A stretch of 64,000 bases of DNA from an uncultured Nitrososphaerota archaeon (GTDB lineage Archaea; Thermoproteota; Nitrososphaeria; Nitrososphaerales; CADDZS01). A model generated the notes under the pieces. It made no database searches and was not told the DNA's origin. It was given only the letters and a program-made list of their open reading frames with translations. The stretch's first letter is position 1, and every line of letters starts with the position of its first letter. A program made the position numbers and the translations under genes. Positions 34,606-40,403 of this stretch are shown here, piece after piece. The stretch is from the NCBI GenBank assembly GCA_963799845.1, contig CAWCYI010000004.1, positions 1,920,001-1,984,000 on the forward strand. Reading direction: 5' to 3'.

Positions 34606-34613
34606 CTTACTAG
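34606..34613 (+). repeat. left part of repeat R3 (CTTACTAG), split by IS110
   Basis: joining it to 37753 restores CTTACTAGTAAATACGTGTCCGAATC, matching R2 and R5. Confidence 0.88.
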
Positions 34614-34935
34614 GTGACATGATCGACCGTATTAAAGGAACGTAAAGCCACAGCCAAGCACATGTACGCAGCAATAGACTTGCACCAAAAAACTGTACAG
34701 TCAGTACTCAAGGATGAAGGGGGAAGGATAGAAAACGAGCTGAAGATCAACAAGGATGCAAAAAGCATACTCGAATTTCTTGATGGTACTGATGCTGAAA
34801 TAGTCATGGAGTCTGGTTACAACCACGAACACATCTATGATCTTCTAAAGGAGGAAGGATACGATGTCAAGGTAGCTCATCCATTGATGGTTAAGGCGAT
34901 CGCATACGCAAAAGTGAAAAATGACAAGGTAGACG

Positions 34936-36883
34936 GCGCGCCAAGGAATCTCTATGACTCGTGGACGTAAGTTCCACTCTGGGAATCGCAGGTTTGCCCA
35001 GATAGATTGGGGCACAGCTAGCGGAGCAATTCGCTGGCTGGAGCTGTCCTCAAATCAAATCCTCAGGCCGCAGCGCAAGCGAACTCGATGTAGCACCGTG
35101 AGGTCGGAGTGGGAAGGCCTAGCAAGTCGTCACTCTGCGAAGGCTAGAACTGCATCATCAGGTGTAATGCCTGTAGCCTGCGAGCATGCAGCTTCCCCGG
35201 TGTTGCAGGGGTGGCATGAGGAGAAAGCCATGGAGCCTAACTTGGGAGACCGGGTAGTGTCCATAGATGCTCTAACAACTAGGGCATCTTTGGTAGTGCT
35301 GCCTATAAGCTCGTTGAGCGAAATGGCGGCCGAAGCGCTGCACGGAGTCGGAAAGGCTAGTAGTATTCATGAGGGTGAGGACAGCACAACCTCGCACGAG
35401 AGAAGGAGCCTTACTTGTGTGCGTGACTGCTCAAAGTTCATGGACGAGTCCATTCTTCGCAAGAAGTAAGAGGTTGAAAGCTCGTAATTTGAAGCCCGTC
35501 GAAGAACTTCGTAGCAGTCTTTACCGAACAGCTGAAGGAGAACAAGGAAAGGAGATTCTACAGTCTAAAAGATAAAATCTGTCGGATCGATGTTTTGGAA
35601 GAAGCTTGGAAAAGAGTCAGAGCAAACAAAGGTGTGGAAGGAATCGACAACGAGACAATCGAGGACATAGAAAGGAGAGGAGTTGATGAATTCCTCTCGC
35701 GGCTACAGCAAGAACTCAAGGACGAAACATACAAAGTTCAGTGCGTCAGGAGAGTTTTCATTCCCAAACCGAATGGGAAGAAAAGACCTCTTGGTATCCC
35801 AACTGTAAGGGACAGGGTAGTTCAACAGGCGGTCAGATTAATCATCGAGCCGATATTCGAAGCTGATTTCCAAGATTTCAGCTACGGATACAGATCGCAC
35901 AGGTCGGCAAGAGATGCAAGCTTGGCAATCTACAGGTGCCTAAACTTCGGTCTTACGAACGTCATCGATGTTGACATCGAAGCGTTCTTCGACCACATAG
36001 ACCATTCAAAACTAATCTCCTTTGTCAAGGAGCGAGTCACAGACGGATACATCATCAAACTCGTCAGGGAATGGCTCAGGGCAGGCGTCGTCTACATGGG
36101 TGAAACGACTTATCCGAATGAGGGGACTCCTCAGGGTGGAGTCATCTCGCCTCTTCTAGCCAACATCTATCTCAACAAACTCGACGCAGCATGGACGGAG
36201 CTGAAGATGAACAGCAGATACAAGTACAATTCTCAGCTCGTTAGATACGCCGATGACATTGTAATCTTCACAGACAGGAGTTATGCAGGAAACATCATGA
36301 GGTTTCTCTCGGAATTTCTTTCCTCATATCTTGGACTCGAGCTGCGCGAGGACAAATCCAGAATCACTACAGCAAAGGAAGGATTTGATTTCCTTGGATT
36401 TCACTTCTTGAGAAGATTTGAGTTCAGGAAGGGGAAGGAAGTAACCAGATTCTTCCCGTCCAAAGCTACCGTGCGAAAGTTCAGGGACAAGGTTAGGGAG
36501 CTAACTGCAAGGGGTGTCACTCACGTCAAGGATGAAAGGCAGCTAGCCAAGGAACTGAACTTGCTCATTGTAGGATGGACTAACTACTTCAACCACTCTA
36601 ATGCCTCAGAAACATACGGAGACTTGCAGCACTACGTCGAATGGAAGTTCAGGCAATTCATACGCTTCAAACATCAGATTCGCAGATTGTCAGCCAGATA
36701 TGATGGCTTCGATCAGCCCTCTCAATTTGGCTTGAAATCTCTAGCGGGTAGAATCTCGTACGTAACTTGGGAGCCGTACGCTCTTCGGTGAAGCACCTCG
36801 GTAAGCTGTGTGAGGGAAAACTTCACGCACAGTTTGATGTGGGAGGGGGAGGATTGAAAACAAAATCCTCTCTTTCACCCAAC
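34936..36883 (+). mobile_element. group II intron
   Basis: 5' GCGCG; domain V AAGCTGTGTGAGGGAAAACTTCACGCACAGTTT (36803-36835); domain VI hairpin with bulged A ending ACCCAAC; removal restores the recombinase frame exactly. Confidence 0.95.
35595..36791 (+). CDS. ltrA: group II intron reverse transcriptase/maturase (no endonuclease domain)
   Basis: RPLGIPTVRDRVVQ, GTPQGGVISPLLANIYL, RYADD, GFDFLGF, GWTNYF; natural N-terminus (EELRSSLYRTA/KENKERRFYSL) is offset by one base near 35534. Confidence 0.93.
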   Translation: MEEAWKRVRANKGVEGIDNETIEDIERRGVDEFLSRLQQELKDETYKVQCVRRVFIPKPNGKKRPLGIPTVRDRVVQQAVRLIIEPIFEADFQDFSYGYRSHRSARDASLAIYRCLNFGLTNVIDVDIEAFFDHIDHSKLISFVKERVTDGYIIKLVREWLRAGVVYMGETTYPNEGTPQGGVISPLLANIYLNKLDAAWTELKMNSRYKYNSQLVRYADDIVIFTDRSYAGNIMRFLSEFLSSYLGLELREDKSRITTAKEGFDFLGFHFLRRFEFRKGKEVTRFFPSKATVRKFRDKVRELTARGVTHVKDERQLAKELNLLIVGWTNYFNHSNASETYGDLQHYVEWKFRQFIRFKHQIRRLSARYDGFDQPSQFGLKSLAGRISYVTWEPYALR

Positions 36884-37594
36884 CAAGGACACTTGCAGAT
36901 CTACTGAGACTGGACATGATACCGGAGTGCTACATCCCCAGCCAAGAGATAAGAGAAGTAAGAGACCTGGCAAGGAGGAGACATTATTTCGTCTCGACAA
37001 GAACGATGTTCAAAAACAAAATCCATGCAGAGCTCAGCAGGAGATGGATTGATTACAGTAAAGATCTCTTCACGCAGACTGGGATGGACCATCTAAAATC
37101 GCTTCATATCGCAGCGGTAAATGACTACCTCGACTCAATTCAGTTCCTCGATGAGAAGATACGAGAGCTTGACGGCCAAATCAAGGAAAAGCTCTTGGCG
37201 ACAAATATGCGAAGCTCCTTGTGACGGTGCCAGGAATATCCTACTACGGTGCGCTGCTGATTTCAAGCGAGATTGCAGACATCAACAGATTCCCAGACCC
37301 AGAACACCTGTGCTCCTATGCAAAACTGGCACCCGGAACTCATCAATCGGGAGAGACACAATACCAGAAAGCAGATCGTAACAAGGGCAATCACATGCTC
37401 AACTGGATATTGATCCAGTGTGCTCACATACACGTCCTAAACTGCAACTCGTCGATTACTGGGCATTACAACAGGATCAAGGAAACGAGGGGAAACAAGA
37501 TCGCCATCGTCGCAGCAGCAAGAAAACTGACGTGCGCAATCTACATGATGCTGAAGGAAGAAAGAGCCTTCAGGCTGGACGGCTAAAACCATAA

Positions 37595-37741
37595 ACTGGG
37601 CTCGAGAATTTACTGCATCTTCAGGATGCGTTTACTAGGATGAGCCAAAGGCAATAAGCGAAAGCCACAATGCTCTTTTGGAGCGAATGGGAGTATGCTC
37701 GTCCAGCATGACAAAAGAGATATTAAGAAATGTAGCCCAGT
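37595..37741 (+). ncRNA. predicted bridge/seek RNA of the IS110
   Basis: two stem-internal loop-stem modules; loop 1 carries GAATTTACT and TTTACTAG (target), loop 2 carries ATGGGAG (donor end); ends ACTGGGCT/AGCCCAGT are complementary. Confidence 0.8.
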
Positions 37742-37750
37742 CGACATGGG

Positions 37751-37879
37751 AGTAAATACGTGTCCGAATCTCGTTACATGACCGAGCTATCATCTTGAAA
37801 ATTTGGAAATAGGGGTTGTATTTTTACTAGTAAATTCGTGCGGGGGTCCCACAACTCGCACTCGGGATTTACTAGTAAA
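37751..37879 (+). repeat. palindrome/TCCCAC repeat, copy R3 (right part)
   Basis: AGTAAATACGTG ... TTTACTAGTAAA(37823)-TTCGTGCGGGGG-TCCCAC-AACTCGCAC-TCGGGA-TTTACTAGTAAA(37868). Confidence 0.93.
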
Positions 37880-38017
37880 AACTGAAGCCAAATGCTCAAA
37901 CTTACACAGCAGCTCCCATAACGTTAGCGCGTTCATTTGCTGGCACAATTTACTGGCATCTCGAGGCTCAATTTAACCAATAAATACCTTGAACATGCGT
38001 GAACGACGAGTGCGAAC

Positions 38018-39001: not shown

Positions 39002-40403
39002 GTAACCGTTTAGCTTTTTGAAGCTGGATTTAGATAGTTCATGGCATAATCGTAAAAGTTCAATCCTCTCAGCCTGCACGTCTCTTTCACGCTCATCAAC
39101 ACTTTGTGTGCATCTGCTCCTTCCATCGATTGGTTGCCGTAGGTTATCTTTCTAATGACAACGCTTGGTCTTATTGCTCTCTCCGCTGTATTGTTGTTCC
39201 AGTCAACTCCAAGCTCTTCAAGGAACGTGAACAGCATTCCCTTCTCTCTTCTCAGACGCTTGACAAACCGCATGCAGTTTGTCTCATCCACGGTCGAATA
39301 CGATGCGTTAATTTTCTCGACCCTCGCTTCAAACCTCTTCTTGGCTCTTAGGCGATCCCTCTTTCCATTCACGCTCTTTCCAACTTTTATCGCGTCATTC
39401 AGTATGCGTTTGAGTTTCTTTGAAAACGGTGTGAATTCTTTTCCCGGTCTCTTATAGATCTGGGTGTCTTCTATATCACGGAGGTAGTGCAGAAGGCATC
39501 TCTGATGTTTTGTTCCAACGTAGTTCCATGCCGGCCATGAATCGCTTATCACGGTCCCAGCGTAGTCTCTACCAAGTACCTTTATGGGAACCTCGCTGCC
39601 TCGAGATCTTGCCACCTCGTAGATAACCGACCATTTGCCCACAAACGTCCAGAGCCAGTGGTTCTTTCCCTTGATCCTCCAGCTTGTTTCATCGCCATGC
39701 AGACTCTTTTCATTTCTCACTTCTGAGATGAGATCACTGTAACGCGGACCGAATGCTTCTGCAACCTTCATCACAGAGTGCTCCACCGAAGCCTCACTCA
39801 TCTCAAGATTGAAGATGAGCTTGAATAGTGAGGTGATTTTTGCGTACGACAGCCCCAGCAATTTGAGCGAAACTATAAGGAGCATCAGTCTGAGCCCGAA
39901 TCGCTCGTTGCTGAGGACATTGGGCACTTCAGGAGAGATCTGTCTCCTGCATCCGCAGCAATATCTCCTCTTAATTACGTATCTTGTTACAACCAATCTT
40001 GCGGGAACGACATCTTCGACAAATCTTTCGTATTTGTCTGTAGGTTTTTCTGAGAGGACTCCTCCGCATTTGGGGCATACAGTTTGATCCAGTTCCATCG
40101 TATGATCAACGTGGTCTGGCTTTCTTCTCGTCCCGCCTTCGTGACCTTTTCTTCTCCCAGATTTCTTGTGGTACTTTCTGTTATCGGAGGTGGTTGTAGT
40201 AAAGGTCGCGGGAGTGTCCTTCTTTGCGTTTATGCTCCTTGCAACAACTGCCCCAAGCGTTGTCTTGAGGGAGGCAAGCTCCTCCTTGAGCTGTTTATTC
40301 TCCTCCTTCAGGAGTCTGTTTTGTTCTTCAAGTTCATCGATTTGACTTTGGTAGTATTCGGGAAGATTACTTGGTTCATCGTCAATCGAAGACAAAGGCT
40401 TAC
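39002..40403 (-). mobile_element. single-ORF IS66-family element
   Basis: ends GTAACCGTTT / reverse complement GTAAGCCTTT; no clear TSD. Confidence 0.8.
39010..40395 (-). CDS. IS66 transposase
   Basis: leucine zipper, GHEG, CPKCG, HGDETSW, ISD, QRCLLHYLRD, NNTAERAIRP. Confidence 0.93.
   Translation of the reverse strand: MSSIDDEPSNLPEYYQSQIDELEEQNRLLKEENKQLKEELASLKTTLGAVVARSINAKKDTPATFTTTTSDNRKYHKKSGRRKGHEGGTRRKPDHVDHTMELDQTVCPKCGGVLSEKPTDKYERFVEDVVPARLVVTRYVIKRRYCCGCRRQISPEVPNVLSNERFGLRLMLLIVSLKLLGLSYAKITSLFKLIFNLEMSEASVEHSVMKVAEAFGPRYSDLISEVRNEKSLHGDETSWRIKGKNHWLWTFVGKWSVIYEVARSRGSEVPIKVLGRDYAGTVISDSWPAWNYVGTKHQRCLLHYLRDIEDTQIYKRPGKEFTPFSKKLKRILNDAIKVGKSVNGKRDRLRAKKRFEARVEKINASYSTVDETNCMRFVKRLRREKGMLFTFLEELGVDWNNNTAERAIRPSVVIRKITYGNQSMEGADAHKVLMSVKETCRLRGLNFYDYAMNYLNPASKS

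Follow-up and report, generated by a model that had tools for sequence, protein, structure and literature searches.

Residence within the transposase genes of insertion sequences (ISs) is a known habit of group II introns in bacteria, and numerous intron copies have further mobile DNA around them (PMC4424553). One such intron, RmInt1 of Sinorhizobium meliloti, encodes a reverse transcriptase (RT) devoid of an endonuclease domain, occupies the ISRm2011-2 transposase gene in sense orientation, has intron-less copies of this IS as its homing sites and uses the exon-binding sites EBS1, EBS2 and EBS3; its authors interpret RmInt1 as braking the IS (PMC3035460). In archaea, group II introns have been found in 28 of 296 representative genomes, with an average of 3.0 per intron-bearing genome and with 15% of Thermoplasmatota genomes carrying them (PMC8919778). 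Elements of the IS621/IS1111 type, for their part, encode a recombinase with a DEDD RuvC-like domain and a Tnp domain, insert into palindromic repeats and have a short left and a long right end (PMC11208160, PMC11208158), and in the IS1111 group the long right non-coding end contains the bridge RNA (PMC11208160). The locus described here brings both kinds of element together: within a 64-kb (64,000-nucleotide) stretch of DNA from an uncultured Nitrososphaerota archaeon of soil (assembly GCA_963799845.1, contig CAWCYI010000004.1, positions 1,920,001 to 1,984,000), hereafter referred to as the window, a group II intron interrupts the recombinase gene of an IS110-family IS, which in turn has inserted at TTTACTAGTAAA, a palindromic motif belonging to a family of repeats in the genome.

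As in RmInt1, the intron encodes an endonuclease-less RT and is inserted in sense orientation into an IS gene whose intron-less copies constitute homing sites. On the other hand, the host of RmInt1 is a bacterium and its IS belongs to another family, whereas the present intron occupies an archaeal IS110 DEDD recombinase gene at the codon for the last catalytic Asp, starts with GCGCG and revealed a 4 bp EBS1 pairing and EBS3 only. With the introns described from Methanosarcina and other archaea it shares an archaeal host, a probably IIB-type RNA and a low copy number. The IS resembles those of the IS621/IS1111 type in its DEDD RuvC-like and Tnp domains, in its insertion at a palindromic repeat and in its short left and long right ends, but differs from them in that its gene is interrupted by an intron and its bridge RNA is only a candidate. 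The locus adds a further case to an established behaviour of group II introns and does not represent a new kind of biology; its contributions are the archaeal host, the RT clade, so far archaea-only and with mostly GC-starting introns, the base-exact proof of insertion furnished by an intron-less twin, and evidence that the apparent decay of its genes stems from the assembly. It provides a clean three-layer nesting of mobile elements in a domain of life where, as an initial annotation of the window had rightly noted, group II introns are rare, and it brings together two mobility systems that rely on RNA, a retrohoming ribozyme and a recombinase that is presumably guided by a bridge RNA. No intron inside an IS110 gene is described in those parts of the literature on group II introns and IS110 that were covered by our search.

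With a probability of roughly 0.6, we interpret the element as a genuine, probably intact mobile group II intron of the IIB type using EBS3, which encodes an endonuclease-less RT/maturase and has retrohomed into one of two near-identical IS110 (IS1111-type) copies. What was seen directly comprises the anatomy and boundaries of the element, the allele lacking the intron, the pairings with their covariation, the clade to which the RT belongs and the one-base differences of short-read contigs at both frameshift sites. That the whole element is still active is, by a narrow measure, the better supposition.

Identity and boundaries of the intron

The recombinase gene is split at 34935/36884, one base past the codon for the last Asp of the motif KNDKVD, with the intron in the sense orientation relative to the gene. 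A scan of the whole window at the Rfam gathering thresholds gave two matches in total, both within the intron (Table 1). The match to domain I barely exceeds its cut-off, and a close relative of the intron at locus L012 (L-numbers denote loci carrying relatives of the intron RT) likewise scores 51.4 bits. In an alignment with eight relatives, the differences in the stem of domain V are compensated, and the branch-point A of domain VI is conserved. Alignment of the recombinase to IS621 places the DEDD residues at D6, E50, D88 and D91, the last of which is followed by the intron, and KNDKVDARTLAD aligns with K(T)D(T/A)VDARMLAE of the IS621/ISCro4 chains, KNDKVDA corresponding to K-T-D-x-V-D-A. 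The equivalent residues of IS621 are D11, E60, D102 and D105, and recombination is lost when any one of these is mutated (PMC11208158).

BLAST located three further IS copies in the genome: the intron-less copy C6a, the diverged copy C6b and a left-end fragment on C1. C6a is contiguous over 34935/36884, running from ...GTAGACG straight into CAAGGAC... (junction letters ...AAGGTAGACG|CAAGGACACTT...), and its open reading frame (ORF) reads ...KVKNDKVDARTLADLLRLDMIPE... across the junction. When either intron boundary is moved by one base the junction of C6a is no longer reproduced, and the boundaries are therefore unambiguous. The 91 codons and one base that precede the intron continue into G|CA, encoding Ala, to give KNDKVD-ARTLADLLRL, as in the ORF of C6a. 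The proposal of the initial annotation that a group II intron sits in the IS110 active-site motif, directly after the last Asp of KNDKVD, is confirmed by Rfam, by C6a and by the short-read contigs, and the sequence D-A-R-T-L-A-D, which splicing had been predicted to restore, matches the uninterrupted ORF of C6a at that point.

Logan contigs, which derive from short reads, of four public runs (labelled X1, X2, X3 and X5) were compared with the stretch. The 5′ junction is bridged without differences by a contig of X2 (34906-35006) and by one of X3 (34815-34965), and the 3′ junction is bridged in the same manner by a contig of X3 (36788-37163); the intron-less joint 34935>36884 likewise occurs in DNA contigs from X1 and X2, so that both alleles exist as DNA. 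The search for intron-less alleles recommended at the outset was thus rewarded by C6a as well as by these joined contigs. Since short-read contigs bridge both junctions, the insertion is real and not an assembly chimera. A misjoining of the intron into the IS through repeats might have been suspected, considering that the IS is a multi-copy repeat and that the assembly contains consensus errors, but it is refuted by the difference-free contigs of X2 and X3 and by the identical junctions of a diverged version, which reduce its probability to almost nil. This diverged version, approximately 94% identical, was detected in the soil run X5, which belongs to a second study, in contigs over both junctions of a related IS110 (34914-35506 with 33 differences and 36742-37115 with 23 differences); the combination of intron and IS110 consequently predates the two near-identical IS copies of this genome. 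We regard the presence of a real group II intron within an IS110 gene as practically certain.

Table 1. Features of the intron, of the IS that carries it and of the surrounding repeat. Positions are those of the window unless a contig is given.
Feature	Position	Strand	Details and basis
Group II intron	34936-36883	+	1,948 nt; 5′ GCGCG ... AAC 3′; Rfam, intron-less copy, short-read contigs
Domain I (part)	34959-35078	+	Rfam RF02003 (group-II-D1D4-4), 51.4 bits, cut-off 49, full model 1-138
Predicted IBS1 (intron-binding site 1), GACG	34932-34935	+	Last 4 exon bases; complement of EBS1 loop 35128-35131
Predicted EBS1, CGUC	35128-35131	+	Domain I loop; covariation across 8 clade introns
Candidate EBS3, G	35205	+	Pairs with first exon-2 base, C 36884; single fitting alignment column
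RT/maturase of the intron	35489-36791	+	TTG start 35489; 433 aa without the extra G at 35534; no endonuclease domain
Extra G in the assembly	35534	+	Right after AGCT (35530-35533); breaks RT frame past codon 15
Domains V/VI	36801-36883	+	Rfam RF00029, 48.1 bits, cut-off 40; match ends with final intron base
Domain V	36803-36835	+	AGC triad 36804-36806, CG bulge, GAAAA loop; Rfam alignment
Domain VI branch-point A, bulged	36877	+	7 nt before 3′ splice site; Rfam alignment and relatives
IS110-family IS (IS1111-like layout), intron included	34607-37756	+	Identity with C6 copies spans these ends
Recombinase exon 1	34662-34935	+	91 codons and 1 base, ends KNDKVD; ORF listing; PF01548 residues 4-91
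Recombinase exon 2	36884-37586	+	Rest of RuvC-like domain, coiled coil, Tnp domain; ORFs 36916-37224 and 37221-37586
Right non-coding end of IS	37587-37756	+	170 nt; candidate bridge RNA site; left end 55 nt
Palindromic repeat unit (TTTTTACTAGTAAATTCGTGCGGGGGTCCCAC...ATTTACTAGTAAAAA)	37816-37880	.	Longer version starts at IS insertion point
Starts of TTACTAGTAAA in window	32547, 37824, 37869, 41001, 43067, 43143, 43205, 53176		
G+C-rich repeat core GTGCGGGGGTCCCAC or complement	37838, 43157, 53190		
C6a, intron-less IS copy	C6:903701-904902		99% identity over left 329 bases, 100% over right 873 bases
C6b, diverged IS copy	C6:961379-962589 (L004 1501-2711)		82-85% identity
C1 IS fragment	C1:164079-164205		121-base left end

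Exon recognition, the 5′ end and the archaeal clade

The first 420 nt of eight introns of the clade defined by the RT (those of the window, L012, L032, L033, L036, L037, L040 and L045) were aligned. In seven of the eight, one loop column of domain I can pair with the end of that intron's own exon, L037 and L040 having 7 bp, L032 6 bp, L036 5 bp, and the window, L012 and L045 each 4 bp; L033 has none. This covariation among differing sequences lends good support to the assignment of the column as the predicted EBS1. A pairing of EBS1 with the exon end TAGACG had been expected, but the alignment of domain I yields GACG only, that is, 4 bp and not 6. The sequence CGTCTAC near 36090, a perfect 7-nt complement of GTAGACG (for which about 0.1 occurrences would be expected by chance in 1,948 nt, by our own arithmetic), was also considered as EBS1 and was rejected since it lies in the RT coding region, in domain IV.

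A scan for EBS3 over five introns (first exon-2 base C in the window, U in L012 and L045, A in L037 and G in L036) returned one complementary column, which fits in one of two further introns (L033) and not in the other (L032). EBS3-IBS3 recognition is the mode of IIB and IIC introns (PMC4424553). The base 5′ of EBS1 is a U, which cannot pair with the exon-2 C, and the δ-δ′ mode is therefore disfavoured. For EBS2-IBS2, no complementary stretch of at least 5 nt was found in the window at a column common to the eight introns. Because the RNA-DNA pairing is so short (GTAGACGC alone occurs 42 times in the genome), extra specificity must come from the protein or from an overlooked EBS2. The alignments point to a ribozyme that is probably of the IIB type, with EBS3 as the proposed partner of the second exon.

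The intron opens with GCGCG (34936-34940), with C in place of U at position 2, and its 3′ end AC fits the consensus AY. The consensus 5′ GUGYG ... AY 3′ holds for an overwhelming proportion of group II introns but not for all of them (PMC4424553). Position 2 is a C in six of the eight aligned introns, which start with GCGCG (the window, L032 and L037), GCACG (L033, L036 and L040) or GUGCG (L012 and L045), and the bacterial relatives L017 and L019 start with GUGCG, as judged by eye. The initial annotation had thus read the start correctly; on the evidence of the alignment, the deviation is a habit of the archaeal clade and not a lesion of this copy. Covariation partners were also sought for intron positions 2 and 3; the candidate columns track two subclades and are confounded by relatedness, and no claim is made. 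Among the papers listed by a literature search on this start, none deals with a prokaryotic 5′ splice-site variant, as judged from titles and abstract openings. The clade offers natural C2 variants, with which the catalytic role of the conserved U2 in GUGYG may be probed.

The intron-encoded protein (IEP) is matched in Pfam by RVT_1 (PF00078, 131.7 bits) and GIIM (PF08388, 52.4 bits) and by nothing else, and it scores 398.6 bits (cut-off 300) against the NCBIfam equivalog TIGR04416 for group II intron RT/maturases; its best solved relative is the group II intron RT/maturase 7uim_D (E 4.8e-62). Since the protein stops approximately 35 residues beyond the GIIM match, this short tail leaves it without an endonuclease domain, as had been noted from the start. 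The IEP classes C-F all lack this domain, and archaeal group II introns belong to classes CL, D and E (PMC4424553). The missing domain fits classes C-F; the solved-structure references cover classes C, CL and ML only, the rows of the RT tree are unclassified relatives only, and the best plasmid matches by tblastn (Paenibacillus, Enterococcus, Leptospira and others), at 40-45% identity, resolve no class.

The nearest RT relative is 87% identical, intact and 433 aa long. Relatives at 52-66% identity are all archaeal, originating from metagenome-assembled genomes (MAGs) of Thermoplasmata, from E-plasma, from an uncultured archaeon and from a Bathyarchaeota MAG, and bacterial relatives reach at most 47% identity. 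A quick maximum-likelihood tree was calculated from 50 rows, comprising the window, 47 of 80 genome-contig loci and two metagenome loci; additional copies from copy-rich MAGs were omitted, as were certain loci that are partial or single (L038, for example), and stops were converted to X in three rows. As proposed, the RT could be placed by phylogeny: it groups with archaeal rows in a set of 11 rows with an SH-aLRT of 100, in which all eight named members are archaeal, and within this sampling the clade is so far archaea-only. No RT matches at E <= 1e-60 were found in 300 other genomes sampled from the class of the host. For the partial small-subunit (SSU) rRNA of the genome, the archaeal model gives the best match (776 bits), in keeping with the archaeal host that the initial annotation had assumed. 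The RT matches of L040, L045 and L063 contain 14, 12 and nine stops, respectively, in one frame; either these copies have decayed or, where the MAGs come from long reads, the consensus contains additional errors.

Several related introns are also associated with transposase genes. In L037 (788-3053) an rve integrase gene harbours the intron, at a point that separates its matches to rve and rve_3 and is three codons past the Glu of ...NGDIESFH, which we take to be the DDE Glu of the integrase. L011, L012 and L045 share one site within the DUF772 domain of a DDE_Tnp_1 transposase (IS1182-like), and the intron of L036 (2829-3137) lies five bases upstream of an HTH_Tnp_1 (IS3 OrfA) gene; the flanks of L032 and L033 show no recognizable family. 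A tblastn search with the two parts of the recombinase found no split IS110 gene at the 98 loci of RT relatives, the sole match being an uninterrupted IS110-like ORF on the opposite strand at L074 and L081. Judging from these flanks, the clade seems to be tied to transposase genes of several families. One might go further and imagine an archaea-specific endonuclease-less lineage that has dropped the 5′ GU, lives as a hyperparasite of DNA transposons, homes to catalysis-related codons, gates transposition by splicing and is carried by ISs to new repeats and hosts, but we consider this generalization improbable. In the portions of the literature reached by our search, there is no mention of a GC-starting clade or of its siting in transposase genes.

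Reading frames, splicing and mobility

In the assembly, the reading frames of both the RT and the recombinase are broken by one base. Three-frame translation of the RT start gives LKPVEELRSSLYRTA in one frame but KENKERRFYSL in a second, and the added base sits at ACAGCT-G-AAGG; the relatives begin with (M/L)KPVEELRSSLYRTAKENKERRFYSL in the alignment. A contig of X2 (153 letters, depth 3, no other difference) has one base fewer at 35534, and without the extra G the RT reads ...RTAKENKERRFYSL, exactly matching the relatives. The recombinase frame breaks in the run GGAAAAGCT (four A, 37187-37190) in both near-identical IS copies. A contig of X1 (857 letters, depth 14.8) contains an extra A behind 37186, and the resulting five A reopen the frame, which then reads ...KEKALGDKYAKLLVTVPG, like the diverged copy C6b, where ...KYAKLLVTVPGISYYG is found. 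This second frameshift, which is absent from the initial annotation, is contradicted by the sole contig covering 37186-37190. The comparison of the Logan contigs with the stretch yielded exactly these two one-base corrections. Both indel sites adjoin AGCT (35530-35533 and 37190-37193) and, apart from the two indels, both ORFs are stop-free. These comparisons make it rather likely that the RT and recombinase ORFs are both intact in the organism.

If both frameshifts were real, the intron and both near-identical IS copies would be non-functional relics. Such decay would be in line with the assembly, which shows the two frameshifts and has that of the recombinase in common to both IS copies, with the third copy C6b, which is broken at other places, with the single intron copy and the intact but unoccupied homing sites, and with the observation that in bacteria the majority of intron copies have been truncated or inactivated (PMC4424553). 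However, the sole contigs over both sites differ from the assembly by precisely the frame-restoring base and match the protein of the relatives, both sites adjoin AGCT, the ORFs contain no stops otherwise and an intact 433-aa relative shares 87% identity with the RT. The initial annotation had foreseen a dead relic in the event that no spliced product appeared and the RT frameshift was confirmed in reads; instead, the sole short-read contig over 35534 contradicts it. With each contig difference reopening its frame, decay is disfavoured and we consider it unlikely; apparent frameshifts at AGCT in this assembly should not be counted as gene decay.

Under the interpretation that we prefer, that of an intact mobile intron, transcription, splicing, the amount of ligated mRNA and mobility are inferred from established knowledge of endonuclease-less introns. 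The IS would have inserted earlier at the palindrome, and the intron would then have retrohomed into the IS. The intron would be transcribed as part of the recombinase mRNA, from the same strand, and the 433-aa maturase, translated from domain IV, would aid the folding of the RNA. Lariat splicing at A 36877 would join GAC-G to CA, restoring the codons for D-A in the DEDD motif and with them a recombinase ORF of 325 aa, and the excised RNA-protein particle would reverse-splice into intron-less sites through the pairings CGUC/GACG (EBS1) and G/C (EBS3). As there is no endonuclease, the nascent DNA strand at a replication fork would serve as primer.

If the intron splices, the recombinase output of this copy is placed under splicing control; if it does not, the IS is silenced, as proposed for RmInt1. 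The dependence of recombinase expression on splicing, put forward in the initial annotation, holds for this copy only, as the intron-less C6a can supply the protein in trans. It is indeed conceivable that the intron excises and moves with negligible ligation of the exons, acting as a retroelement that brakes an IS copy mobilized only in trans. In ISRm2011-2, the endonuclease-less RmInt1 gives 0.07 ± 0.02% ligated exons within the transposase gene and still invades its targets (PMC3035460). In the present genome, C6a is 99-100% identical and could provide the recombinase, the right ends, where the bridge RNA presumably lies, are identical in both copies, and introns of the clade are found in or beside four kinds of transposase gene, in which loss of the host gene costs the cell nothing. 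The in-frame site at a conserved codon and the sense orientation are, by contrast, what would be expected if restoration of the ORF matters, although homing to conserved DNA would have the same outcome. We consider such silencing to be possible rather than probable.

A number of observations weigh against an intact and mobile intron. In the RNA, position 2 departs from the GUGYG consensus, the stem of domain VI is extended and contains several G-U pairs, the EBS1-IBS1 pairing of the window comprises only 4 bp and an EBS2-IBS2 pairing was not found in the alignment of eight introns. In the genome, no intron copies exist elsewhere and two intact homing sites, those of C6a and C6b, are empty, the frame of C6b being broken at other places and its site reading ...GTGGACG|CAAG; the single copy and the two empty sites together disfavour efficient retrohoming at present. 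The analogy with RmInt1 itself implies very little exon ligation, only 0.07% in its IS (PMC3035460). Among the public runs listed for the stretch, none is recorded as RNA. As for the reading frames, the correction in the RT depends on one contig of depth 3 and that in the recombinase on a single contig, which has the junction without the intron; presence and not absence is what contigs show, and rare variants are dropped from them, so that a frameshifted allele may exist as well, and the public runs may derive from the same material as the assembly.

The host element and its genomic repeat

The recombinase ORF, when spliced, measures 325 aa if there are five A at 37187-37190. PF01548 is split over the two exons with 28.1 and 23.2 bits, each below the cut-off of 29, whereas the intron-less N-terminal part scores 116.5 bits against NF033542 (profile 1-211); the C-terminal part scores 82 bits against the same profile (223-342 of 343), and the Tnp domain PF02371 is matched with 65 bits (cut-off 21.3). 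An SG dipeptide (THQSGE), seen by eye in the Tnp domain, is a candidate for the counterpart of the conserved Ser, S241.

The right end contains TTTACTAGG, with letters identical to those of the left IS junction, together with the related TTTACTGCATC, and imperfect subterminal inverted repeats are visible by eye in the IS. Apart from a chance long non-coding RNA, no Rfam match at E <= 1 was obtained for 37500-37900. The fold of the right end has a z-score of -1.77, with nine of 200 shuffles as good, which is a weak signal. By its position, the right end is a candidate for a bridge RNA of the IS1111 type. The C1 fragment adjoins a gene resembling a hydrolase.

All three full IS copies have TTACTAG on the left and TAAA on the right, and the fragment has TTACTAG at its sole preserved (left) end. 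Together, TTACTAG and TAAA rebuild the target motif TTACTAGTAAA, and these letters may therefore be part not of the IS but of the target or core. The motif occurs 47 times in the genome, against 1.6 occurrences expected per strand, and the unit of approximately 60 bp beside the IS has 36 other BLAST matches in the genome when the right flank is used as the query. Uninterrupted long sites, ...TTACTAGTAAAT(A/T)CGTGCG..., are found at C4:1963072 and C7:22192, and the right flank of the IS in the window continues exactly such a unit. The flanks, the empty sites and the repeat counts show the nesting of intron in IS110 and of IS110 in the repeat, as first proposed, to be real. The further suggestion that the intron rides the IS into other repeats describes a possible event of which this genome bears no sign, there being one intron copy and two empty homing sites.

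Another mobile element may lie approximately 1.3 kb from this IS110 copy: a 461-aa ORF on the reverse strand (39010-40395), whose N-terminus is a coiled coil and which contains a zinc-finger region of the form CxxC...CxxC, resembles an IS66-type transposase when judged by eye.

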